A DNA stretch of 64,000 nt, from contig JAADGF010000099.1 of NCBI GenBank assembly GCA_013152545.1, forward strand, positions 9,906 to 73,905, in the 5' to 3' direction. Made by a program: the position numbers and the translations under genes. The notes beneath the pieces are model-generated. The model was not told the origin of the DNA. It saw only the letters and a program-made list of their open reading frames with translations, and did not search any database. Origin of the DNA: Gammaproteobacteria bacterium. Lineage in GTDB: Bacteria > Pseudomonadota > Gammaproteobacteria > SZUA-152. Of the stretch, positions 1,560 to 63,997 are shown in pieces. Numbering within the stretch: position 1 is the stretch's first letter; each line of letters opens with the position of its first letter.

Positions 1560-2898
1560 GGTTTGCCATCTCCTCATGACTTATCGATTGACGTAAAAAG
1601 AATCGCTCACCTACAAATACAAACAGAACGCCAACCAGCGCCGCATAGATAACCATCATGTCGGTGGATGCTTTCACCATCAAAAATACGCTAAGCACCA
1701 CAGCATCAAAAACAATGGCCACAATCAGAATTACGGCATTCGCGTTGATTTTTTTTCGAAGGTGGCGATACACGCCCCAATGCACCGCAATATCCATCAA
1801 CAGGTAGAAAATAGCCCCGAGTGATGCGATGCGGCTTAAATCAAAAAACAGGGTGAGGAATATGGCAACCACAATGGTGTAAACCAAGGTATGATTTTGG
1901 ATAGTACCCGGCATACCAAAATGACGGTGTGGTACTAGCTTCATATCAGTCAACATCGCCAACATGCGAGATACCGCAAAGATACTTGCGATAACACCTG
2001 AGGCTGTGGCGACAATTGCTAATACAACAGTAAACCATAGTCCGTAATCACCCAGCGCTGGGCGTGCCGCTTCTGCGAGAGCAAAATCTTTTGCGGTGAT
2101 GATTTCCTGCAAGCTAAGGTTGCCCGCAACAGCCAGAGCAACCAGAAAATAAATCACCACACAGATCACAATTGAAATGATAATGGCACGCCCAACATTG
2201 CGATGTGGGTCAATAATTTCGGAGCCACTATTGGTAATGGTGGTAAATCCCTTATAAGCTAAAATAGCCAGAGCCATTGCAGCGATGAACCCGGTGATGG
2301 ATGTATCTGCCGCACTGGCCGAACTGGCGCTACTTTCAAACGAAAAATTAGCAATCCACAAACCGCCAAGAGCAAACACGACAATGCCACCAATTTTAAT
2401 AAAGGCCATCACCAATGAAAAAAAACCAATCGCGCGATTACCAGAAACATTGAGCAGAAAGGCAAAAACCAGCAGTCCAACTGCCAACGCCAGAACTATC
2501 CAACTGCCGGGGTCAATGTCAAATAGTTGTATGCTGTAAGTACCGAACGTTTTTGCGACCAAGCTCTGGTTAATGACCATCGAAAAATACATCAATAATG
2601 CGCCAGCTGCCGTCATCACCCCTTTCCCATAGGCTTTCTGCAGAAACATCGCGATGCCCCCAGCAGAGGGGTAAGCATTCGATAATTTCACATAAGAATA
2701 TGCGCTAAACGCGGTTACCACTGCCGCAGCAAGAAAAGCAAGCGGGAATAATGAGCCAGCAAGTTCCGCAATCTGTCCTGTCAGTGCAAGTATACCCGCG
2801 CCGATCATTACCCCGGTGCCCATTGAGACAGCACCCACTAATGTTAGGCTGTTTTTTTTATATTGTGATTTTTTATTGTGCTGCGAATGATTTTCCAT
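1543..2898 (-). CDS. APC-family amino acid permease
   Basis: The 450-aa product has 12 predicted TM segments and APC-family features (GxG-rich N-terminal helix GAVSMGTGVMIGAGIL). The start is probably MENHSQ (GAGG RBS) rather than the track start at 2910. Confidence 0.8.
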   Translation of the reverse strand: MENHSQHNKKSQYKKNSLTLVGAVSMGTGVMIGAGILALTGQIAELAGSLFPLAFLAAAVVTAFSAYSYVKLSNAYPSAGGIAMFLQKAYGKGVMTAAGALLMYFSMVINQSLVAKTFGTYSIQLFDIDPGSWIVLALAVGLLVFAFLLNVSGNRAIGFFSLVMAFIKIGGIVVFALGGLWIANFSFESSASSASAADTSITGFIAAMALAILAYKGFTTITNSGSEIIDPHRNVGRAIIISIVICVVIYFLVALAVAGNLSLQEIITAKDFALAEAARPALGDYGLWFTVVLAIVATASGVIASIFAVSRMLAMLTDMKLVPHRHFGMPGTIQNHTLVYTIVVAIFLTLFFDLSRIASLGAIFYLLMDIAVHWGVYRHLRKKINANAVILIVAIVFDAVVLSVFLMVKASTDMMVIYAALVGVLFVFVGERFFLRQSISHEEMANHDPEK

Positions 2899-3339
2899 CG
2901 ATGACCTCATTTAAACAGGTGGCGATATCAGTAAGTTCACGTTGCAAGTAGCCACTGAATCAATCAATTAGTTTTATTTTATTGAACACGACATAGGCTA
3001 TTCCACCCGGCAACGCAAAAACCAAATTTGATAAAATAAGAATCTGCAAGCACCCACGACAAATCCTAGCAAACCGTCGGCGATGATCACGATATCGGCA
3101 ACAGGGTCCCGCTAGATCAAAAACCAGGCAACGCTATCGGTGAAAATAGCGACAAAAAGCAACAACGTTAACGTGCATTGAAAGCAGTGATCACCTTAAC
3201 CCAGCTTTTTCGTATATTGCGCCAACATGGCAACCAACTCCAGATGCCAAAAACTCTCTAAAAACAGTTCCAGGCATTGCAACAGTACCAGCCGATGTCC
3301 ATGACATCTATTAGGCGATCGTTTTTCCTTTTGAGCACA

Positions 3340-4530
3340 TCAAAACGCTACTTCCACTTGTAATGTCACCAAGCTATCATCGTCAGCGCTTGCCGGACCA
3401 CTCACATCCCAGTATTCAACAAACCCGCGAGCATTTTCAGCAAAATAATAGGCGACTTGGAGAGTGATTTCGTCGTAGTCATCCTGACCGTTATTCTTTT
3501 CGTAACGATCCAGACGCAACAGCGGAACAAAAGTTGGACGGCCATCCTCTATAAATGTATAGCGAGCCTCGACATAGGTGGCGTTGTTGTCCTCTTCAGC
3601 CGTTGCTGTGCTGTTGTCATCCGAAGCTTTTAACAGCGCCCCCATCAAGCGAATATTGCCAATATCCGCTTGAGCATCAACACCGGTACGGCTAAAATCA
3701 CGGTCCACAGTACAATTCGTGTTTGTCGCTTTGCAAGTGCCGCTGATCGTCATCAATCCAATCATGATCTCCGGCGTAACATCCATTGCTAAACGGCCGG
3801 TAAGTGCGTCGCTGTCTTCACCTTCCGCATCGCCCTTAACACCGCTAATACCGACGCTGTAGAAGAACTTCTCAGCCGGCCGGCCGTAGAGCGTGATGTT
3901 TTGCCGCGCATCGCGCAATCGACCATCAGCATCCGCTCCGCCAAACCGTTGATTAATCACCGAGGCGCGGTTGCGGGTCAATTTACGGCCATTACTGTAA
4001 ACATCATAGGGGTCACTGCCCGTAATGGCTCCCCAAGAAACTTGCAGATTAACCGCTTCGCTTGGGTGATAACCGAGCGCGGCAGACACCACTTCAACGT
4101 TAAAACCCGCATCATCCTCAGCCTCCAATTCAAACCAGCCTGAAAAATTATTAGCCATTGCCCCGGCAACCATGACTTCCACTTCGTGGAGCGCGCGTAG
4201 TTTTTTGTCGCCACTATCTTTTTTTTCATAGGGTCGCCCCTTAATCATCGCGGTTACCGGCAACGTTTGATCCCAGTTCATAAATCCCGGCGTTTCATCC
4301 CTGGAGAGACGATAACCATTCTCTTTGAACGTGCGTCCCGCAGTGTTCAAAGCAGGCCAGGCACTGTGGCAACTACTGCATTCGGTCTGGTGTTTTCGAG
4401 CAAAGGCAGGAATTGCCTGTGCAGTGCTGATAAACAGTATTCCAACAATCAGCATGGACAGGGATATCAAAACGATGCCTGGCCGTTTTGATACGCTAAC
4501 GGATAGTTTATTGCGGTATACGACTTTCAT
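3340..4530 (-). CDS. Cyc2-like fused monoheme cytochrome c / outer-membrane beta-barrel protein (putative)
   Basis: N-terminal signal sequence, then a single CSSCH heme-binding motif followed by WPALNTAGRTFKENGY. About 350 aa of strand-like alternating sequence ends in the C-terminal ...LQVEVAF (aromatic terminus typical of OM barrels). It lies 11 nt downstream of a cytochrome c gene. Confidence 0.5.
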   Translation of the reverse strand: MKVVYRNKLSVSVSKRPGIVLISLSMLIVGILFISTAQAIPAFARKHQTECSSCHSAWPALNTAGRTFKENGYRLSRDETPGFMNWDQTLPVTAMIKGRPYEKKDSGDKKLRALHEVEVMVAGAMANNFSGWFELEAEDDAGFNVEVVSAALGYHPSEAVNLQVSWGAITGSDPYDVYSNGRKLTRNRASVINQRFGGADADGRLRDARQNITLYGRPAEKFFYSVGISGVKGDAEGEDSDALTGRLAMDVTPEIMIGLMTISGTCKATNTNCTVDRDFSRTGVDAQADIGNIRLMGALLKASDDNSTATAEEDNNATYVEARYTFIEDGRPTFVPLLRLDRYEKNNGQDDYDEITLQVAYYFAENARGFVEYWDVSGPASADDDSLVTLQVEVAF

Positions 4531-4541
4531 CCTTAACTCTC

Positions 4542-4847
4542 CTATTGGTTCGCTAACAAATAATCGACCAGCGCATCGATCTCCGCGCGAGTCAGCTTTC
4601 CTTCATAACCCGGCATAGAGTTTTTACCCTTGATGATGGCTTGACGCAGGGTTTCCTCGCCGTTGCTCATGGTGTTAACCGCCGGCCCTAATTTCTTTTT
4701 ATCAATGGCGTGACATAGAGAACATTTTTGTTTGAAAAGCGATTGTGCATCCGGTATTTCAGCGTCATCCGCAGTAACCCCGGATGGCGCGGTGCTAAAG
4801 AATAGCGCGATGAAGAGTAGCGCATTACGGTTTTTTATCATGCTCAT
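4542..4847 (-). CDS. Class I monoheme cytochrome c (c551/c552-like), periplasmic
   Basis: Signal peptide MSMIKNRNALLFIALFF; CSLCH heme motif; a distal Met in NSMPGY. The start is taken at ATG 4847 (AAGGA RBS). The track ORF extends to 4877. Confidence 0.8.
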   Translation of the reverse strand: MSMIKNRNALLFIALFFSTAPSGVTADDAEIPDAQSLFKQKCSLCHAIDKKKLGPAVNTMSNGEETLRQAIIKGKNSMPGYEGKLTRAEIDALVDYLLANQ

Positions 4848-5850: not shown

Positions 5851-7193
5851 TTTCGTTATTATCTTTTTTGTAAAAATCGTCCCGCCGCAATGGTGTGGCC
5901 AACGACTGATACGCGGGAGCGGTCAACACCTGATAAACGTTGGTGCTGCCCTCATCGAAAAAGTGGGCGCAGCCCGCCATGTAAAGGCGCCATACCCGAT
6001 AGGTGGCTTCGCCCACCATCGCAACCGCCTGTTCGCGATGCATCTCCAGTGCCCGTACCCAATGACGCAGGGTCAAAGTGTAGTGGTGGCGCAATCCTTC
6101 CACGTCGATGATTTCAAAACCGGCCTGCTCCATAGCATTCTCCACATCGCTAATACGCGCCAACTCACCGTCCGGGAAGACATAACGATTCATGAAGCGA
6201 GTGACCGGTGTATCCTGCCAACCGGTATCATTGGTAATACCGTGATTGAGAAACAGCCCACCTGGTTTGAGTATCCGCTTGACGATGCCGAAATAGAGCG
6301 GGAAGTTGGCCACCCCGATATGCTCGAACATGCCCACGCTGACGACCCGATCATAGCGGGGATCGACAGGAAGACTACGATAATCACGCAGTTCAATACG
6401 AACCCGCTCTGCCAGCCCCTCACTGCGTACCCGTTCGATAGCATAACGATATTGCTGCTCACTCAAGGTAATACCGTACACCTGCACACGATAATGGCGA
6501 GCAGCCCAAATGGCCAGGGCACCCCAGCCACAACCGATGTCGAGCAATTGCTGGCCCGGCTCCAAGCACAATTTGCGACAAATGTGATCCAGTTTATCCT
6601 GCTGGGCATTGGCCAATGCTTGGCTGGGATCGCGAAAATAGGCACAGGAATAAACCATCTCGGGGTCCAACCACAGACGGTAAAAATCGTTACTGACATC
6701 GTAGTGGTGGGCAATGCTCTGTTTGGTATTATGGTGCTGCACGGCTTTCCCATCACGAACAGCAGGTGGGGCTGATATCCGGGAACCCGACGTTCGCTGC
6801 CTTGGCAATCGCAATGCCCGCCGCAGCAACCACCACTTGTCCCACCAGGAGAAATGCAGTTGGCGTGCATGCTGCGTCAGGTCAAACAGCGTTTCTATCT
6901 CACCCTCTATACCCAGGTCTCCGGCCAGGTAAGACTCTGCAAAGTGAACCAAATCCCGATGCAACACCAGATGACGCAAATACCAAGGGCTGGCGAAAAA
7001 CCACAATGCAGGGGGCGTCGGCCTCACCGTGAACGCACTCACCGTTCCACAAACGCGCCGCAACCGGTCCATCATAGCCGCTCAGGAGGCGTTCCATAAT
7101 CTCCCGTCCGGCGACGGTCGCTACATCGCCCAAGGTATTATCCCGGCCAATGATTGACGGACGTTGCGCAAATTCTTTAGATTTGATTTTCAT
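5804..7193 (-). CDS. cfa: Cyclopropane-fatty-acyl-phospholipid synthase (Cfa); apparent +/-1 frameshift near 7012-7016 (G5 run), so possibly a pseudogene or a sequencing error
   Basis: The 423-aa ORF aligns to E. coli Cfa from the ...ESYLAGDLG region onwards (DIGCGWG SAM motif, VSVGMFEHIG). The N-terminal approximately 55 aa (MKIKSKEFAQRPSIIGRDN..., GGAG RBS, ATG 7193) are in a different frame (track ORF 6900..7319). The frames switch at a GGGGG homopolymer. Confidence 0.7.
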
Positions 7194-7732
7194 ACCCTTA
7201 CTCCCTACAGCTTTCTCTCTCCATATGCCACCAAAAATCCAACAACCGGATCTTTGAATAAAACATGGCGTCATATTCCCAGAGTCGGAAAAAGTACTCT
7301 CTGTAAAAAACACCAACACACGACGAAGATTAATAGCCTCATAAGTGATGCCCCTCTACTGATTATCACTGAATATTCAACGACAATGAGAATGAAGGAA
7401 CACTCAGATATGCCCATGACATTATTCATCACCTTGTTTTACGGCGAAGCACCACAAAGTTGTAGATTAGCACCCAGATCAGAGCAAAGTACCCGCCATA
7501 GCCGTAGGCCTCAATCAATCCTAGGGAAAAAAATTTCCAACTCAGCCACTCAAAACCCGGCAACAGTTGTTGCCAGATTCCATACATCGCATGTTCGGGC
7601 AATATCACCAAGTGTAAACCCTAGGCGCAACACACAAGTCAACCAGTTATTCTAATCACAAACAGTATCGTAAAATAAATTTTCGCAGGATATCTTCCAT
7701 TAAGATTTTAAGTAAAACGTCAAATTGATCCA

Positions 7733-7761
7733 CCGCAGTAGAAAAAATCTTTCTACTGCGG
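7733..7761. other. Perfect 12-bp-stem inverted repeat (CCGCAGTAGAAA-aaatc-TTTCTACTGCGG)
   Basis: Seen directly in the sequence. No adjacent T-run, so it is not a canonical intrinsic terminator. It sits in a ~1-kb region without convincing ORFs. Confidence 0.5.
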
Positions 7762-8664
7762 TAGATTCTCGGTGTTGTGATCGCATAAGGCCTCTGTCTT
7801 GGTGGCTATTGTGTTTCGCCATCTATACCGACCATCTTTGGCCCTATTTTTTCAATGAATATTTTTATACTTGACTGACTTTATTAGCTTTTTTTGTCGT
7901 TACAAAACACTGCACTCAAAGCATTTTCCAATTGGTTCTGGAATGGCGGAGGCTGCGTGTAAAACCCTAATAAAGCAGCGTTTGTGTCGTTCGGGAATGA
8001 GATGGAAAGATAAAAGATTGAAAGACGATGTTGAAGTTTACGCTCATTAGTATTAACGAAAGAGAAGTGGAAACAATTCTGGGATCGCATCGACCAATAT
8101 GGAACACCTTGGGTTTAGGATGGATACATTATTAGTAAGGCAGCACTCATTGTCAACGGACCCTAGCGGTTTGAGACAATGAAATAATGCCTTCAAAAAT
8201 GCCAACAATGATCCAATGTGGCTGCCAGCCATAATGTTTGCATCATATTGGGATGTAATACGGACTGCCGAGAAAGTCTGTTAATTGCGGATGTGCATGG
8301 GAAACTTGATATCCATTTCCACAGATATGGATCTGTAAAGAAATAAGTTGGACAGATTGCGCCCCGGATATCGTTTCGTCTTCAAGGTTTCCGCCATCCA
8401 TGGCTCACGCCCCTTACCGACTTCCATATAGGCAAAGCGCGGAAATGGGCTCATCCCAAGGGCACTTCTTTCAGGGCGCATACTCGTTGCCTGTAACCTT
8501 TTGCGCAATGCCGAAAACACAAGGATAGACTAGCAAAATGTTCAAATTATTTCTTTACAGAGCTTATTGTGCGCATACTCCTTACGCACTACTACAAATT
8601 GACTTACGTAGAAACTATTTACGATTACCGATTACTTCAAACCGTTTGGGCGATACCTAATTTT

Positions 8665-10512
8665 TTACAAAGCGTCAGTCGTAAGCACATTATTCGTTGC
8701 GATAACAGGCTCAATAAATTCCACAACAAACTGCGCACTACGCACACCACGATATTCATTTACATCCAGCCTATAAGCAACCTTAACGCGCTGTACATTT
8801 TGCGGCCAAGCATCGTCTACAGTGTTAAAAGCGATAGCGTCAACCACGGTCTCTGAACCCGTTACCTTCAGCACTAATTTTAAATGCTTTTCAGCAACAA
8901 TACGTTTTTGAATCACATCAAAATATCCATCAAACAGTGGTGCTGGGAAAGCCTGCCCCCAAGGCCCTGCGGCCTGAATTTGCTGCGCCAGCGGCAAACC
9001 AATATCCTCGGATGAGAGTTCGCCATCACTATGGATAACATGACAAAAATCATCTACGCTTAACTGGCGGCTGACCTCACGTTCGAAGGCTTGCTTAAAT
9101 GCATCAAAATCCTTATGGTAGAGACTTAACCCTGCGGCCATAGCATGCCCTCCGAACTTGGAGAGTATGCCTGGATATGAAGTGGCAACGGCGTCCAAGG
9201 CATCGCGAATGTGAAAACCCGGCACCGACCGCGCTGAACCTTTGATGATCTTATTTTGTGTCTGGCTATCGGCACCCGCATCTGCAAAGGCAATAACAGG
9301 TCTGTGAAATTTATCTTTTACTCGGGAAGCCAAAATACCGACGACACCTTGATGCCAGGATGCATCATAGATGCACAAACCGCTGGGCAATGAAGCGTCA
9401 CCATTAAGCGCCATGACATCTAACGCATCCAGTGCCTGAGTTTTCATGGACTGCTCAATTCGCCTTCTTTCGATGTTAAGCGCATTTAACTCTTCGGCTA
9501 TAATATTGGCTTTTTCGTCATTATCAGTGAGTAGACACACGATCCCCATCGACATATCCTCCAGCCGACCAGCGGCATTTAACCGTGGTCCCAACGCAAA
9601 ACCTAAATCTTCGGCCGTCAATTTATTTGCATCTCTGCCAGACACTTGTATTAACGCTTTTATTCCTGGACAACAGGCACCAGCCCGAATTCTTGCCAGG
9701 CCCTGTGCCACTAAAATACGATTATTATGATCCAATGGCACCACATCTGCCACTGTACCCAGCGCCACCAAGTCCAGTAATTGAGCAAGATTAGGTACCG
9801 GAATTTTTTGTGCTTCAAACCAGCCGCTATGCCGCAGTTGCGCCCGTAATGCTAGCATAACGTAAAAAATTGTTCCGACCCCAGCCAACGCCTTACTGGG
9901 AAATTTATCGTCCGGCTGATTCGGGTTAACAATAGCGGCAGCGGCTGGCAACACATCGCCAGCCAGATGGTGATCGGTTATCACCACCTTAATCCCCAAA
10001 TCATTGGCCGAATTAACACCGTCGATACTGGAAATACCGTTATCAACTGTTATGATAAGTTGCGGGTTATATTGTTTTGCCACGTCAACAATTTCCGATG
10101 TTAAACCATAACCAAATTCAAAGCGGTTAGGGACCAAAAAATTTATTTGCTGCGCGCCCATCATTTCCAAAGCACGCAGAGCAACAGCGGTGCTAGTGGC
10201 TCCGTCGGCATCGAAGTCGCCGATAATTAATATTGAATCTTGTTGCTGAATACTTTGTTGTATTATAGCCACTGCGTCATGTATGGCGGAGAGTGACGAA
10301 TAAGGCAATAAATGTTTTAACGATACCTGCAGCTGCTCCACTGATTTTATGCCTCTTGCTCGATATACTCGGTCGAGCACCGGATGCAGATCAGGTTGCA
10401 ACAAATTTTCGTGGTTAATTTTATTACTGCTGTCGTAACTTGTCGTTATTGTTCTTCTTTTTATTTTTATGGTCACGATTTGATAAATACCTATTATAAT
10501 GTTTGCTGTCAA
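8665..10512 (-). CDS. recJ: Single-stranded-DNA-specific exonuclease RecJ
   Basis: DHH/DHHA1 motifs (IIGDFDADGATSTA, ITVDNGI, VITDHHL, GGHAMAAG) with end-to-end similarity to E. coli RecJ. The first in-frame start is TTG at 10512. GTG at 10473 (giving MTIKIKRR...) is an alternative. Confidence 0.9.
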   Translation of the reverse strand: MTANIIIGIYQIVTIKIKRRTITTSYDSSNKINHENLLQPDLHPVLDRVYRARGIKSVEQLQVSLKHLLPYSSLSAIHDAVAIIQQSIQQQDSILIIGDFDADGATSTAVALRALEMMGAQQINFLVPNRFEFGYGLTSEIVDVAKQYNPQLIITVDNGISSIDGVNSANDLGIKVVITDHHLAGDVLPAAAAIVNPNQPDDKFPSKALAGVGTIFYVMLALRAQLRHSGWFEAQKIPVPNLAQLLDLVALGTVADVVPLDHNNRILVAQGLARIRAGACCPGIKALIQVSGRDANKLTAEDLGFALGPRLNAAGRLEDMSMGIVCLLTDNDEKANIIAEELNALNIERRRIEQSMKTQALDALDVMALNGDASLPSGLCIYDASWHQGVVGILASRVKDKFHRPVIAFADAGADSQTQNKIIKGSARSVPGFHIRDALDAVATSYPGILSKFGGHAMAAGLSLYHKDFDAFKQAFEREVSRQLSVDDFCHVIHSDGELSSEDIGLPLAQQIQAAGPWGQAFPAPLFDGYFDVIQKRIVAEKHLKLVLKVTGSETVVDAIAFNTVDDAWPQNVQRVKVAYRLDVNEYRGVRSAQFVVEFIEPVIATNNVLTTDAL

Positions 10513-58479: not shown

Positions 58480-61167
58480 TTATCCAACGTGAGTTTTCTC
58501 AATATCCAATGAAACCAGATTAAGTAATGCCTCGTTATCCATCTCTGTCAGCAGTGTCTCGGCACCACCAGTCAATACGTCGTTGGCGAGATCCGTTTTC
58601 TCATTGATCAAGGCGTCTATCTTCTCTTCCACCGTTCCCCGGCAAACGAATTTATGCACCAGCACGTTTCTTTTTTGGCCAATTCGAAACGCGCGGTCCG
58701 TGGCCTGATTTTCCACCGCCGGGTTCCACCAACGATCAAAATGGATCACGTGTGATGCCTGAGTCAAGTTAAGCCCGGTTCCCCCTGCCTTGAGGGACAA
58801 AATAAAGAAGGGCGGCCCCTCTTCATCCTGAAAACGCTCAACCCGTTTTTGTCGCTGTTTAATCGGGGTGCCACCATGTAATACCAAGCCCGGCTGGCCA
58901 AACTGCTGCGCCAAAAAAGCAGCCAACGGCGCAGTCATTTCACGGAATTGGGTAAATACCAATAATTTTTCCTGACGTGAAGCAATCTCTTCACAAAGCT
59001 CCGCCAGACGCTGAAATTTACCACTGTGCTGCGGTTTATATTCATCATCCCCCAGCAATTGCGAAGGGTGATTGCAGATCTGTTTAAAACGCAGCAGGTA
59101 AGAGAGTACCAGCCCCCGCCGCTTCATGCCATCCTGATTTTCAATGGATTTTGCCAGCTCTGCCACTGCCTGCTGGTATTGCGCCGCCTGGACTTTGCTC
59201 AGACCACAGTATGCGGACACCTCGGTCTTTTCCGGCAAGTCGTTAATGATTGAAGCATCGGTTTTAAGACGTCGCAGAATATAGGGGCCGACCAGATTAC
59301 GCAGCGGTGCATATTGATCACTCTCGCGCTCAGCGAGTGATTTCACAAACCCTTTGAAGCGCTTGGCGGACCCCAGCAGACCGGGGTTTAGGAAATCAAA
59401 CAGGGACCAGAGATCCGACAATCGGTTCTCCACCGGCGTTCCGGTCAGTGCAATACGAGCATCGGCATTAAGCAATTTTACCACTTTGCTCTGCCCGGCA
59501 ACCGGGTTTTTGATTGCCTGAGCCTCATCCAGCACCAACAGTTGCCACTTTTTCTGCTGAAGCCAGTCTTGTCGCATCAGGGTACCATAGGTGGTCAACA
59601 CCACATCAATGTTCTTCAAGGCATCACTGACATTCGCCATGGCGTCCATGGTTTTTTTGCTCTGCTGAGAGCTGTGCAAAAACAGGCAACGCAGGGAGGG
59701 CGCAAAACGCTCAAGCTCCGTTTTCCAGTTAGCGAGCAAAGAGGCAGGAAGCACCAGCAGAGAAGGTTTGTTACTACGCTTGTTTTTTAATCCTAGCAGT
59801 AGTGCAATAATCTGCATGGTTTTCCCCAACCCCATGTCATCCGCCAGACAAGCGCCTAGGCCTAACTGGGACAGCATGTATAACCAATTCACCCCCGCCT
59901 GTTGGTAGGGCCGGAGGTCTGCTTTAAGCGCCGTACCGGGATCAATAGCCTGTGCTTGAGCCGGTGCGCGTAACGCTTCTAACTGTGCCGCCAGCCATTG
60001 ACCTGGCTGAACAAAAGACCACGCCTTGCTCTCTTCCGGAATGTCGTTACCCAAATCAACCGGTGCGCCAGCCAGCAACCGCATCCCTTCGGAAAAAGTG
60101 AGCCCGCCATTTGCCGTCTCCGATTCCACCTTTTTCCAATGGGCCAGGGCTTCATTCAGCTTCTCCTGGTCCACCTCAACCCATTGCCCTTTAATAAAAG
60201 CGAGCCCCTCATTCGCCACCATGAGTTGCTTTAATTCGGCCTTACTGAGTGGCGTCTCACCGAGGGCAATATGCAATTTGAAATCCAGCAATGAATCGGC
60301 ATTGAAGTTCTTTTGATGGCGCTCGCCAATGGTAATGCCGATACGCGGCCTGCTGCGTTTTTTCCACCAGTCCGGCAGCCGCACGACCACGCCGCAGTGT
60401 TCGTACAGCGGGGTGTCCTTAAGAAACGCATAGGCCTCCCCTGGTGTCCAGACCAGGGGGTGATAGAGATCACCGGTATCAACCAGGTCTTTGATCACGG
60501 CGCTGGATTCAGCAGCGAGTTGTACCGGTGAAAGCAGGCGGATCAGGGCCTTTTTGTTTTTTGCACCCGCATATTCCTGTAAGGCGCGGCTAAGGGGTTG
60601 ATGACGGCTACGGCTCTGTACTGAAAGTTCGGGAGCATAGGTCGCCATAAAAGCAAACGGGTACTCGGAATCATTTTTATTTTCCGCCAGATGAAAACAA
60701 ACACGACCCACTTGATGCCATTGCGGTGCTCGCTTGGTTAACAGTGCATCAAGCCCGCCAACAAGCCGTATTTGCTCACAAACCCAGTCATCCAGTAAGG
60801 CGCGGATATCCCGCAGCACTGGCGCGGTGAGATACTCAGCGCCACGCATGGGTGGCGCACTCACCAGTAGCTGTGTGGTTTGTGTCGGGGTAAGTGGCTC
60901 GACGGGATCAGGCTGTTGCGGATCTGCCGGTGCCAACTGACAACGTTCACTCAGATACTGGCAGCTAAGGTCGCGCCAATATCGCAACGACGCGGTGAGA
61001 TCCGTGCTGTCTTTCCGGGCCGCCAGGGTAAACAAACCTTCACCGGTACTGCGCGCAAATGCCCTACTGACCATGACCATGTGAGTCTCTTTGTCGTTAC
61101 TGCCATCCGCTAATGGCAAGCAATGCAAATGCCCTGAGGGCAGCAGGCCGAGGTCAAAAGCTCTCAT
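58480..61167 (-). CDS. SNF2-family helicase with N-terminal SNF2-helicase-associated (SNF2_assoc) domain
   Basis: Motif I DDMGLGKT; DEAQ box LVLDEAQAIKN; helicase-C and motif VI DRAFRIGQ. N-terminal FIKGQWVEVD region. Preferred start is ATG 61167 (MRAFDLG, AAGGGA RBS); it overlaps the upstream stop by 14 nt. The track start is 61209. Confidence 0.85.
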   Translation of the reverse strand: MRAFDLGLLPSGHLHCLPLADGSNDKETHMVMVSRAFARSTGEGLFTLAARKDSTDLTASLRYWRDLSCQYLSERCQLAPADPQQPDPVEPLTPTQTTQLLVSAPPMRGAEYLTAPVLRDIRALLDDWVCEQIRLVGGLDALLTKRAPQWHQVGRVCFHLAENKNDSEYPFAFMATYAPELSVQSRSRHQPLSRALQEYAGAKNKKALIRLLSPVQLAAESSAVIKDLVDTGDLYHPLVWTPGEAYAFLKDTPLYEHCGVVVRLPDWWKKRSRPRIGITIGERHQKNFNADSLLDFKLHIALGETPLSKAELKQLMVANEGLAFIKGQWVEVDQEKLNEALAHWKKVESETANGGLTFSEGMRLLAGAPVDLGNDIPEESKAWSFVQPGQWLAAQLEALRAPAQAQAIDPGTALKADLRPYQQAGVNWLYMLSQLGLGACLADDMGLGKTMQIIALLLGLKNKRSNKPSLLVLPASLLANWKTELERFAPSLRCLFLHSSQQSKKTMDAMANVSDALKNIDVVLTTYGTLMRQDWLQQKKWQLLVLDEAQAIKNPVAGQSKVVKLLNADARIALTGTPVENRLSDLWSLFDFLNPGLLGSAKRFKGFVKSLAERESDQYAPLRNLVGPYILRRLKTDASIINDLPEKTEVSAYCGLSKVQAAQYQQAVAELAKSIENQDGMKRRGLVLSYLLRFKQICNHPSQLLGDDEYKPQHSGKFQRLAELCEEIASRQEKLLVFTQFREMTAPLAAFLAQQFGQPGLVLHGGTPIKQRQKRVERFQDEEGPPFFILSLKAGGTGLNLTQASHVIHFDRWWNPAVENQATDRAFRIGQKRNVLVHKFVCRGTVEEKIDALINEKTDLANDVLTGGAETLLTEMDNEALLNLVSLDIEKTHVG

Positions 61168-63997
61168 CCCAATGTCCCTTTTCGTTGTAAGCTTTGATCT
61201 GATCTGCAAATCGCGCTATCGCCTGTTGAGACCTCGCATTAAAATCATAACCGTGCCAGTAAGGGTTTTGCACCACATCCAAATGCACGTGTGCGATCAT
61301 ATCGAACGAAAGCAACTCATAAATATTGCGCCACTCCCCTTCCAGCCGCAAGCTCAATCCCGGATTGATAATGTAGTGACCATGCTTTACTCGCAGAAAC
61401 AGTTTACGGTTATACTTGTCATCGCGACTAACCTCATTCTTTGATAATATACTGGAGATATAAGCACGCTTTTTCCGTCTCGCCGGCAACAGGTGTTCAG
61501 GAAAATGCGCTAACACTTCTGCAAAATCGCTGCTTTGAAAAGCCCCCCGTGTACGGGCAATTTTGCTCCCAAGCCGGGTATAGAACATCGCTATCATCAG
61601 GTTAAGCATCAGGAATTCCATTAAGCGTTTATCGATCTTAATCAATCGCTCATCCACCTGAATATCAACACAATCAGGTTCCAGCAGACGATAAACGGCG
61701 GGCAACTTTCTGTCACTGTATTTCGGGTCATCCAGCGCCTGTTCCAACGCAATCAGGAAGGCGCTAAACCCGGCATTATTAATCAATTCGGTATTGGCTC
61801 CTCGCGCTATTAACTCCCTGACCAATGTTTCATTACCCAGGCGGCTAGCGATCATTAACGGTGTCTGGTTGAAAAGATTGCGAAAATCGACACCGTACTG
61901 ATCTGTTTGCCGCAGCACGGCACCAGGGTGTTTCAACTCATAGGCCATATAGTATTTTTTGTTCAACAGCCGCAGCCCTTTATTAGGGGTTCTGGCGGGG
62001 GCAAATTCGGATTTAATCAGTGCATTCAAACGGGGTTGATCCCGATAGGCCAGTGCATATTCGAACAGGGTAATTTTTGCTTTTTTGTTATTCTCCTCAA
62101 TCGCCTTGTGCTGGAGCTGCTCCAGAGTCTCACCCCGTAATACCTCCCAGGGCACGGGTTTTTGCTTCAAAATCTGATCACGGATGTGCTCTGCCTGTTC
62201 CTGTTTACCCTGCATTTCCAGTCGTTGCGCTTCGACACGCCACTCTTCCAGGCTGGAGTCCTGTTTGTCCAGTTGCAGCCCCTCTTTAGAGGGCCGCAGG
62301 TCGAGCAGATCAAACAACCGCTGTTTGGTTGAGCGTTCGATAAGATAGATATTGCGCACTGCACGGGTAATCGCCACATAAAGGGCATTGATATGGAATT
62401 TATAGATCTCCAGGGACTTGTCGCTCTTATTTTTTACCCTGGCGTAATTCAGCCCTCGCTGTAGGTCCTCATGCTCCACGCCACGGGTAATTTCCCGAAA
62501 ACGTTGCTCTTCTTGCGAGATGAAATTGTAGAGCACAATATTTTCATACTCCAACCCCTTGGCCTCCTGCACCGAGAAAACCAGCGGCGTGCCGAAACAA
62601 GCCCTGGCTGCTGTCTTGTCTTCCGGGTGCATAACAATAACGGCAAAACGGGTTGAGTGGCGGGTCTTACTGTCGAGTTCACGCTTGACCCCCTCCTCGT
62701 CCGGTAGCAATACCACCTCCCCGGTATTGTGAGCATTACTCTCCACCAGATAGTTGCTCTCCTTATCAATCGAGCCGAAACGGGCGCTCTTGATCTTCAA
62801 CACCCGGTTGGATACCTCGGTCACCTGAGGGGAGTTGCGGTAGTTAGTATTGAGAATACGGATCAGATCAGTTTGCGGCGCTGCGTCCTCCCGTCGGTAG
62901 AAAAAGCTCTTGATTTTTGACCAGGAGAAAAAATTAGGATGCACAATCTGGTTCGAATCACCACAGAGAATAAAACCGGTGGGATCACGCAGTGACCTCA
63001 AAATAAGCTGCATCTGGATATTCGTCAAGTCCTGCACCTCATCCACAACAATGAAGTCATATCGTGGCTCAATTTTAGCGAGATATTCATGACTCAATAT
63101 ATTAGCATCGTAATAGCCTTGCTCATTCATGGTCTCCAGGTATTTGACAAACAGATCATAGGCCCGCTGCCGTTCCTCATGGGAGAAAATAGATTGTTTT
63201 ATTCCCAGGTTAAGGTAATCCTGCCGTGCGAGATAAGCGCAATCAATTGCCGGGCCCGTAATCACGCCTTTAAACTCTTCAAACAGCTGATGCGCATCCT
63301 TAAGGCCGCTTGCGGTACGGTGGCGGGTAAACCAGGCGGAGAATTCCTTGAAGTGCATCTCCCGCCCGGCAGGTACCTGAATACTTTCCAAAAACTCCTG
63401 AAAGGAGAGAAAGTCAATCTGTTGATCTTCGTTACTATAATCAGCGGCGAAATAAAGCCCCCTTGAATTATGCACCAGGTAGGGGGAACGGGTAACATAC
63501 AGTATATCGCCCATGGCCTCTTTCATTTTTTCCAGCGTCAATGCTGTTTTACCGCTACCGGCTGAGCCGATAATAATCAAAGGTGGCTGGTAGCGGTAAA
63601 CATCACGTTGCACTTCGTCAAAAGAGATAACCTTATCCAGCAGATTGAAGCTGGAATGTTGACGATTGAGGTAAATCAAAGGCTCTGGCTTCACTTCATC
63701 CAGAGATGTCAGAGTGGGCATCTTGGTCTCATCCACCGTAGCACCACGATTGAGAAAACGGGATTTTTCGTAGGCATGCTGCTCTATGCACTCCAGCACC
63801 AGGGCATAGACCTCCCCCTGGTAGCGCCGAATCGTAAACAACAAACGATTGCTGCGATCCAAGCGCGCACGATAAAGGTTATCCCCCACTTTCTTGACCT
63901 CGGCCGAACGGAAATCGTCAGCCTCCAGGTAAGATCTCATTTTCTTGATTCCGGGTATTTTGGCCGGATCAATTTCATTATAAAACAAAACTTTCAT
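61154..63997 (-). CDS. SF1B (Upf1/DNA2-like, AAA_11/AAA_12-type) helicase with RelE/ParE-like N-terminal domain, ankyrin repeats and uncharacterised C-terminal domain
   Basis: Walker A GSAGSGKT, motif II VVDEVQD, GDSNQ, VFSVQEAKGLEYENIVL and VAITRAVRNIYLI. N-terminus KKVGDNLYRARLDRSNRLLFTIRRYQGEVYALVLE. Ankyrin TPLMIASRLGNETLVRELIARGAN. The ATG sits 3 nt from the window end. Confidence 0.8.
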   Translation of the reverse strand: MKVLFYNEIDPAKIPGIKKMRSYLEADDFRSAEVKKVGDNLYRARLDRSNRLLFTIRRYQGEVYALVLECIEQHAYEKSRFLNRGATVDETKMPTLTSLDEVKPEPLIYLNRQHSSFNLLDKVISFDEVQRDVYRYQPPLIIIGSAGSGKTALTLEKMKEAMGDILYVTRSPYLVHNSRGLYFAADYSNEDQQIDFLSFQEFLESIQVPAGREMHFKEFSAWFTRHRTASGLKDAHQLFEEFKGVITGPAIDCAYLARQDYLNLGIKQSIFSHEERQRAYDLFVKYLETMNEQGYYDANILSHEYLAKIEPRYDFIVVDEVQDLTNIQMQLILRSLRDPTGFILCGDSNQIVHPNFFSWSKIKSFFYRREDAAPQTDLIRILNTNYRNSPQVTEVSNRVLKIKSARFGSIDKESNYLVESNAHNTGEVVLLPDEEGVKRELDSKTRHSTRFAVIVMHPEDKTAARACFGTPLVFSVQEAKGLEYENIVLYNFISQEEQRFREITRGVEHEDLQRGLNYARVKNKSDKSLEIYKFHINALYVAITRAVRNIYLIERSTKQRLFDLLDLRPSKEGLQLDKQDSSLEEWRVEAQRLEMQGKQEQAEHIRDQILKQKPVPWEVLRGETLEQLQHKAIEENNKKAKITLFEYALAYRDQPRLNALIKSEFAPARTPNKGLRLLNKKYYMAYELKHPGAVLRQTDQYGVDFRNLFNQTPLMIASRLGNETLVRELIARGANTELINNAGFSAFLIALEQALDDPKYSDRKLPAVYRLLEPDCVDIQVDERLIKIDKRLMEFLMLNLMIAMFYTRLGSKIARTRGAFQSSDFAEVLAHFPEHLLPARRKKRAYISSILSKNEVSRDDKYNRKLFLRVKHGHYIINPGLSLRLEGEWRNIYELLSFDMIAHVHLDVVQNPYWHGYDFNARSQQAIARFADQIKAYNEKGHWDESF

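Follow-up and report, generated by a model that had tools for sequence, protein, structure and literature searches.

A predicted RelE/YoeB-like domain at the N-terminus of a widespread family of UvrD-like helicases

Introduction

Most of what is known about RelE-family domains concerns small toxins that are checked by antitoxins. Here we describe a gene for a helicase of 947 residues, very probably with a RelE-like fold at its extreme N-terminus, from a 64,000-nucleotide stretch of gammaproteobacterial DNA (contig JAADGF010000099.1, positions 9,906 to 73,905), referred to below as the window. The best described proteins with this fold are YoeB, YafQ, HigB and RelE, which are ribosome-dependent mRNA endonucleases of toxin–antitoxin (TA) systems and share the BECR fold. 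In YoeB, residues E46, K49, R59, R65, H83 and Y84 contact the A-site mRNA (PMC6821326). The general acids of RelE (R81), YoeB (H83) and YafQ (H87) are similarly placed, directly behind strand 4 (PMC5027501). The domain described here resembles these toxins in predicted fold and strand order, but it is fused to a helicase/ankyrin body of ≈860 residues, was never seen alone and has no antitoxin gene. Its sequence similarity to the toxins lies below curated thresholds, and the helix region before its sheet is shorter.

The fusion of a RelE-like domain to a larger protein has precedents in CnuH, a helicase, and in Cami1; a mostly solitary gene for a protein that combines a UvrD-like motor, a RelE-like domain at the N-terminus and ankyrin repeats was not described in the literature that we searched. 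The motor of CnuH, a protein of the CoCoNuT systems, is UPF1-like. CnuH carries a RelE-like “RNase toxin-like” (RTL) domain on a superfamily 1 (SF1) helicase, located between an SmpB-like OB domain and the motor; the authors left its catalytic activity open, and CnuH and its relatives are typically found in operons with other system genes, including those of McrBC type (PMC11090510). An earlier reading of the window, made from the sequence alone and referred to here as the original prediction, had called the fusion of a toxin-like module to a helicase unusual, which is fair, although CnuH shows that it is not without precedent (PMC11090510). In both CnuH and the present family, a domain of the RelE/colicin-D fold lies N-terminal to an SF1 motor in one polypeptide, is recognized by structure only and is of uncertain catalytic status. 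The present family differs in having a motor of the UvrD-like SF1A group, in the position of the domain at the extreme N-terminus, in its ankyrin and C-terminal domains, and in being encoded by a mostly solitary gene. Cami1 (CARF-RelE; PDB 8phb and 8phj) similarly has a RelE-fold domain fixed to a large regulatory body with no antitoxin, and is an example of a RelE domain that, despite its fusion, still gains access to the ribosomal A site. Unlike the helicase family, which has an ATPase motor and no CRISPR context, Cami1 is under the control of a CARF sensor for cyclic oligoadenylate and belongs to CRISPR type III loci.

The helicase gene and its product

The gene is encoded on the minus strand, in an open reading frame (ORF) that runs from 63997 to 61154 and starts with MKVLFYNEIDPAKIPGIKKMRSYLEADDFRSAEVKKVGDNLYRARLDRSNRLLFTIRRYQGEVYALVLECIEQHAYEK. 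The window ends three bases beyond the ATG. Homologues of 945–951 residues aligned from residue 1 over 100% of their length, so the start of the 947-residue ORF is sound. The protein consists of a RelE/YoeB-like N-terminal domain (N-domain), a linker, an SF1A UvrD-like motor, a helical/ankyrin region and a C-terminal domain, as follows:

61154..63997, minus strand: whole helicase gene, 947 residues plus stop codon, from the ORF list
63743..63997, minus strand: predicted RelE/YoeB-like (RelE/ParE superfamily) domain, residues 1–85, from AlphaFold2, Foldseek against the PDB, sub-threshold Pfam matches to ParE_like and ParE_toxin, and conservation
63656..63742, minus strand: linker, residues 86–114, poorly conserved and modelled with lower confidence
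62258..63655, minus strand: SF1A (UvrD/Rep/PcrA-like) helicase core, residues 115–580, from PF00580, invariant motifs and Foldseek
61682..62257, minus strand: helical region with ankyrin repeats, residues 581–772, from Pfam Ank/Ank_2 at about residues 700–755 and sequence matches to ankyrin proteins in the PDB
61157..61681, minus strand: C-terminal α/β domain, residues 773–947, the least conserved domain (mean identity 0.24)

The peptide quoted in the original prediction was present, and the interval assigned there to a RelE/ParE-like domain (63667–63997) corresponds to residues 1–110 of this ORF on the minus strand. The extent of ≈110 residues was too long, since the folded domain comprises residues 1–85 (63743–63997) and residues 86–114 form the linker. 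The C-terminal domain had no Pfam match at E ≤ 10; a RKKRxYISSxLS motif is conserved within it.

A public gene call for the identical protein (P0064, 928 residues) begins at M20, leaving out residues 1–19 (63941–63997 in the window), so that the N-domain loses its first strand and some of its first helix region. Miscalled starts of this kind could hide the domain from automated annotation.

Predicted fold of the N-terminal domain

When the N-domain was modelled alone with AlphaFold2 from 38 sequences, residues 1–80 had a predicted local distance difference test score (pLDDT) of ≈90. A full-length model based on 83 homologues had a pLDDT of 90.3 and a predicted template modelling score (pTM) of 0.90, with a pLDDT of 93–95 in the N-domain. 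In both models, a β-strand (residues 2–6) is followed by two helices (17–25 and 29–32) and four strands (35–38, 41–45, 51–59 and 62–71), and short helical turns (72–78) come after the last strand. The elements that define the RelE/ParE fold, an N-terminal strand, helices, a three-stranded antiparallel meander and a short C-terminal helix, are thus all predicted.

A Foldseek search of the PDB with the model of the N-domain returned RelE/ParE-superfamily toxins as 17 of the 19 best matches. The top match was the YoeB/ParE structure 6n90 (E = 1.8e-3, probability 1.0, TM 0.54), and the others included several YoeBs, YafQ (4mmj; TM 0.57, root-mean-square deviation (rmsd) 3.3 Å), HP0892, HigB, ParE2 and RelK, with HigB2 and the CARF-RelE protein Cami1, including the Cami1 ribosome complex, further down the list. 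TM scores normalized to the target did not exceed 0.57, and no known helicase accessory domain matched. The solved structures closest to the modelled domain are therefore members of the RelE/ParE superfamily, with modest scores, in agreement with the fold that had been proposed from the sequence. We regard the RelE-like fold and the architecture of the protein as highly probable.

Sequence comparisons with known toxin families

The first 120 residues of the protein matched nothing in Pfam (E ≤ 10), NCBIfam or PADLOC. When 103 non-redundant N-domains of the family were scanned singly, eight matched the Pfam family ParE_like (PF24732), while other families were matched by at most three. One member aligned colinearly with ParE_like (residues 13–61 against profile positions 2–52 of 67; 17.6 bits, cut-off 24.4) and also with ParE_toxin (PF05016; residues 17–72 against positions 24–82 of 89; 13.7 bits, cut-off 23). 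These colinear, sub-threshold matches, which extend from the helix through strand 4, are shared by some members of the family; the query itself was unmatched. A single N-domain matched the PHROG “RelE-like toxin” family, NCBIfam gave only noise for the 103 members, and profile searches of the PDB with alignments of the N-domain family returned no toxin.

Using hhalign, the family profile was also compared with individual toxins, a narrow YoeB profile and an eight-sequence superfamily alignment. The YoeB profile had an effective number of sequences of only 1.4 because the 120 listed YoeB homologues were all at least 82% identical, and only three toxins were obtained from the helicase loci for a RelE/ParE profile. 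Of the E. coli toxin sequences used in these comparisons, YoeB alone was verified, by 99% identity to P0327. Though non-significant, the resulting alignments always placed the strand-2/strand-3 hairpin in the expected register.

Conserved residues and their spacing

In column counts from the 103 non-redundant members, K36, R51, H74, F81 and L82 were invariant (103/103), and Y76 (102/103), K/R45 (100/103), R43 (98/103) and E69 (97/103) were nearly so. Position 33 was D or E in 79 members and Q or N in 19. The following residues are putative active-site or RNA-contact residues on the basis of the column counts, the YoeB-like spacing and the hhalign registers; codon coordinates were checked by script:

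63770..63901, minus strand: span of the putative active-site/RNA-contact residues
63899–63901, minus strand: E33, putative active-site/RNA-contact residue
63890–63892, minus strand: K36, putative active-site/RNA-contact residue
63869–63871, minus strand: R43, putative active-site/RNA-contact residue
63863–63865, minus strand: R45, putative active-site/RNA-contact residue
63845–63847, minus strand: R51, putative active-site/RNA-contact residue
63776–63778, minus strand: H74, putative active-site/RNA-contact residue
63770–63772, minus strand: Y76, putative active-site/RNA-contact residue

The spacing of D/E33, K36, K/R45, R51, H74 and Y76 (+3, +9, +6, +23, +2) mirrors that of YoeB residues 46, 49, 59, 65, 83 and 84 (+3, +10, +6, +18, +1), except for a longer strand-3/strand-4 hairpin. 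In the non-significant hhalign alignments, R51 was paired with YoeB R65 and RelE R61, and H74 with YoeB H83. R51, in strand 3, thus resembles these two arginines, H74 resembles YoeB H83 and YafQ H87, the tyrosine close to it has a counterpart in YoeB, and the D/E-x-x-K motif resembles YoeB E46/K49. Compared with E46/R65/H83/Y84 of YoeB and K52/K54/R61/R81/Y87 of RelE, the conserved residues of the family are found at matching spacing, in alignments that are non-significant. One check proposed with the original prediction was whether the RelE catalytic residues are retained: conserved Arg, His, Tyr and Lys residues stand where YoeB and RelE have theirs, in alignments that are not significant. 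The literal RelE/ParE motif read there holds for the strand-hairpin signature and fails in detail, since A44 occupies an [LI] position and five residues, instead of four, lie between R45 and R51.

A regular expression derived from the YoeB spacing, chosen after seeing the data, matched the query, 74 of 105 family domains and one of 5630 background ORFs, as well as 0.08% of composition-preserving shuffles of the query. Together, the conservation across the family, the invariant residues, the pLDDT and the rarity of the spacing pattern show that the pattern in the N-domain is far more than chance. The conserved polar residues may point to a retained RNA-binding or catalytic cleft.

A large family in which the N-terminal domain is constant

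Comparison with the full protein gave more than 4857 matching clusters at 90% identity, of which the top 120 are at least 62% identical to it, and a profile of the N-terminal ≈177 positions matches 1039 clusters at 50% identity. Full-length members have ≈900–1400 residues. In 251 of 274 domain matches among the proteins gathered, the N-domain starts within the first 10 residues, and every recovered member that reaches its N-terminus carries the RelE-like domain, with no swapping of effectors. Among 52 diverse members, the mean pairwise identity was 0.45 in the N-domain and 0.45–0.46 in the motor, and fell elsewhere to 0.21 in the linker, 0.29 in the ankyrin region and 0.24 in the C-terminal domain. 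The N-domain is far more conserved than would be expected of a TA toxin. It behaves as an integral, strongly constrained module of the helicase enzyme.

The members found by genome scan came from Gamma- and Betaproteobacteria, Bacteroidota, Chlorobiota, Verrucomicrobiota, Lentisphaerota, Nitrospirota, Desulfobacterota, Deinococcota, spirochaetes and Campylobacterota, with identities of 40–47% across phyla. A megablast search of E. coli genomes gave no match, and no phage-encoded copies were found. The N-domain defines a large, widespread and unstudied helicase family; the literature search on the family and on PF24732 found nothing specific to the family.

Most of the shorter proteins of the family look like fragments at contig ends or products of decayed genes. 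In a decayed gene of Methylomicrobium (GCA_000733855.1; positions 6001–8258 of locus L086), a 184-residue ORF with an intact RelE-like domain ends just after a broken Walker A motif and is followed by a 594-residue ORF that contains the ankyrin region; the motor lacks ≈590 bp, and the same state is found on many contigs.

The helicase motor

The motor matched the Pfam family UvrD-helicase (PF00580) with 42 bits against a cut-off of 23 bits; AAA_19, UvrD_C and, at residues ≈700–755, ankyrin repeats were also matched. The Q-motif glutamine (Q130), the Walker A motif GSAGSGKT (residues 144–151; 63545–63568) and motif II, DEVQD (residues 319–323; 63029–63043), which we take to be of the UvrD/Rep type, are invariant among family members. 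A Foldseek search with the full-length model placed UvrD, PcrA and Rep first (E ≈ 4e-12), followed by FBH1 and HelD. The motor is thus of the SF1A (UvrD/PcrA/Rep-like) type. The SF1B (RecD/Pif1-like) assignment in the original prediction was rejected on these grounds, the match to AAA_30 (E = 0.009) being below its cut-off.

The family shares with UvrD, PcrA, Rep and HelD the motor core, the Walker A motif, a DExQD motif II and the 1A/1B/2A/2B arrangement and, with HelD, a specialized N-terminal appendage. It differs from all four in that this appendage has a predicted RelE fold; identity to UvrD, PcrA and Rep is only 10–12% in the Foldseek alignments, and where UvrD has its C-terminal region the family has the ankyrin and C-terminal domains.

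Gene neighborhood

Two genes follow the helicase in the window:

58480..61209, minus strand: SNF2-family ATPase with DUF3670 (Pfam); the ORF overlaps the helicase stop codon
57392..58468, minus strand: SWIM-type zinc-finger protein with C-terminal HTH_3, from a motif read in the sequence CDCPDWAGMCKH (CxC...CxH) and Pfam HTH_3

Beyond these lie genes for TatD, Maf and an ABC transporter. The SNF2 and SWIM genes adjoin the helicase as a pair in only five of 83 loci (L004, L022, L033, L034 and L072), which come from distant taxa and have differing gene orientations. Their recurrence hints at a loose functional link; the pair was rejected as obligate partners, and the SNF2 protein is a lineage-specific operon partner of the helicase, not a general one. 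No other neighbor recurred in the 83 loci. The gene context upstream of the window end was examined in relatives, and no conserved small co-directional upstream ORF that could encode an antitoxin was present in 69 loci. The family therefore has no antitoxin and no fixed partner. Elsewhere, the helicase is flanked by unrelated housekeeping or signaling genes, such as those for SecDF, a CHASE2 cyclase and pyrimidine synthesis, which argues against a defence-island gene; the suggestion that this is a defence helicase found no support in the gene context.

A type II TA system has a small stand-alone toxin of ≈85–105 residues and an adjacent, co-transcribed antitoxin gene. The N-domain was never seen as a stand-alone protein and has no conserved antitoxin gene, and the type II toxin-like module that had been proposed was therefore rejected at the level of the system. 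Gabija was also rejected, because the PADLOC matches to GajB were partial (E ≈ 1e-10) and limited to motor motifs, and no GajA-like gene was found among the neighbors scanned. Membership in the CnuH group of CoCoNuT was rejected because the motor is UvrD-like, the downstream neighbors scanned in the window had no Pfam matches of the McrBC/CnuE type and no partners recurred in the 83 loci; no search was aimed at the OB domain.

A CHASE2-domain adenylate/guanylate cyclase gene lies directly upstream of the helicase and co-directional with it in three loci with gene calls (L001, L002 and L003), and a homologous ORF lies upstream in L015. Two or three of these four loci are from closely related large genomes, and the cyclase was not seen elsewhere. 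In a Nitrosomonas metagenome-assembled genome (L014), an ORF for a YoeB-family toxin (phmmer E = 1e-28 to E. coli YoeB) starts at position 4829 on the plus strand, ≈390 bp downstream of the helicase gene (1729–4437), and ParE-like ORFs are present in L006 and L020. Each of these is a single case and probably a coincidence.

Proposed function and alternatives

The explanation that we favor, and to which we would give an even chance, is that the N-terminal ≈85 residues form an RNA-binding, probably RNA-cleaving module of the RelE/YoeB type that works with the SF1A motor and is not a TA toxin. According to this proposal, a domain with a small-RNase fold has been permanently incorporated into a conserved helicase of the SF1A (UvrD-like) type. 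Residues D/E33, K36, R43, K/R45, R51, H74 and Y76 would line a YoeB-like cleft in which single-stranded RNA is bound and probably also cleaved, with H74 as the putative general acid, D/E33 as the base, and R45 and R51 holding the phosphate. The ATP-driven motor might feed the strand to the cleft, or move the enzyme along its substrate once the domain is engaged. The target could be ribosome-bound or other structured RNA, and the ankyrin and C-terminal domains may supply recognition of a partner or target. That the domain is catalytically active is a tentative proposal that we consider slightly doubtful. A further step appears unlikely, in which the domain is a YoeB/RelE-type RNase that is catalytically competent, has no antitoxin and is permanently coupled to the SF1A motor; the protein would then be an ATP-driven, RNA-directed and possibly ribosome-directed nuclease-helicase, and the family a widespread, as yet unrecognized class of bacterial enzymes for RNA surveillance or translation rescue.

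Several points weigh against the favored explanation. The curated cut-offs of PF05016, PF06769 and PF24732 were reached neither by the query nor by the best family member, and hhalign comparisons of the family profile with YoeB or the small RelE/ParE superfamily alignment were non-significant (P of 0.03–0.15). As all sequence-profile tests fell below threshold, homology of the N-domain to RelE/ParE is plausible, but is not established by sequence. The residue equivalences are drawn from non-significant alignments together with spacing, and 19 of the 103 members have Q or N at position 33. The pTM of 0.90 suggests that the N-domain holds a fixed position against the other domains; if so, entry into the ribosomal A site could be sterically difficult. 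RNA as the substrate is an assumption, and UvrD-like motors are usually DNA translocases. The ORF of Methylomicrobium that contains only the N-domain fits a low toxicity of the domain alone, and is uninformative about its activity.

The main alternative is that the RelE-like fold is catalytically inactive and serves as an accessory domain for substrate choice, loading or auto-inhibition of the motor, as in UvrD, PcrA and HelD, with the conserved residues involved in binding only. The fixed position of the domain in the model, the sub-threshold similarity to active toxins, the lack of an antitoxin, the tolerance of the N-domain-only ORF in Methylomicrobium and the not strictly acidic position 33 would all be consistent with such a role, as would the RTL domain of CnuH, for which activity was likewise left open. 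However, a His-x-Tyr motif after strand 4, together with two arginines and a lysine at YoeB-like spacing, is more specific than binding would need, and we consider an inactive domain somewhat unlikely. Less likely than this are a defence effector, gyrase binding in the manner of ParE, and a chance resemblance. A single-protein anti-phage or abortive-infection system, in which the helicase senses foreign nucleic acid and releases the RelE-like domain as a toxic RNase, would account for the patchy occurrence across phyla and on plasmids, including pINV of Shigella, and for the occasional SNF2 neighbor; RelE-like effectors are also known from Cami1 and the CoCoNuT systems, and PADLOC reported weak similarity to GajB, Nhi, AbiO and DRT-helicase proteins (E ≈ 1e-10), restricted to motor motifs. 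Such a system is nevertheless quite unlikely, given neighbors that are housekeeping or unrelated genes (TatD, Maf, the ABC transporter, SecDF, the CHASE2 cyclase and pyrimidine synthesis), the constancy of the effector among recovered members, the failure to find phage-encoded copies, and a level of conservation that is very high for a defence gene, both among the best 120 matches and across phyla.

It is also conceivable that the strand order is that of an unrelated small α/β fold and that the resemblance to RelE is superficial. No Foldseek match had E ≤ 1e-3, the rmsd values were 3.3–4.4 Å, the sequence tests were all non-significant, and one clear long helix is modelled where toxins of the RelE family have two before the sheet. 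Since, on the other hand, the top structural matches are nearly all from one superfamily, with probabilities of up to 1.0 and TM scores above 0.5, since independent weak sequence signals lead to the same superfamily, and since the conserved residues fall at its catalytic positions, we see only a slim chance of this. Tethering of the helicase to DNA gyrase or topoisomerase by a ParE-like N-domain is most improbable. The sub-threshold Pfam matches were to ParE_like and ParE_toxin only, the top PDB match is labelled YoeB/ParE, and ParE2 is in the list; however, RNases of the RelE type also seem to fall within PF05016, since it is carried together with PF06769 by several YoeB proteins, and YoeB, YafQ and HigB outrank ParE2 structurally. 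To our knowledge, ParE toxins also lack the conserved His/Tyr/Arg catalytic set, which is conserved here at YoeB-like spacing.

If the domain is active, the family would represent a new form of control over a RelE-type RNase, by a motor and partner domains instead of an antitoxin, and a candidate factor for the quality control of RNA or ribosomes in bacteria. If it is inactive, the family would show clearly how a toxin fold can be put to new use as an accessory domain of a helicase. In both cases, a specific annotation that can be tested becomes available for thousands of genes whose present labels are “UvrD-helicase domain-containing”, “AAA family ATPase” or “PhoH family”.

Plasmid-borne copies

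The family was found on 136 plasmid records, of which 114 are virulence-plasmid records of Shigella/EIEC (101 from Shigella and 13 from Escherichia); other plasmid records with a family member are from Piscirickettsia, Methylosinus, Deinococcus and Thermus. The literature searched contained no published study of the pINV helicase gene, and the pINV copy offers a genetically tractable model. The member on Shigella dysenteriae pSD1_197 (SDY_RS23620; L089, NC_007607.1, positions 5938–8850) is 47% identical and has intact N-domain motifs. It is divergent from an adjoining polysaccharide-deacetylase gene (shf by position), which is followed by capU, virK and lpxM.

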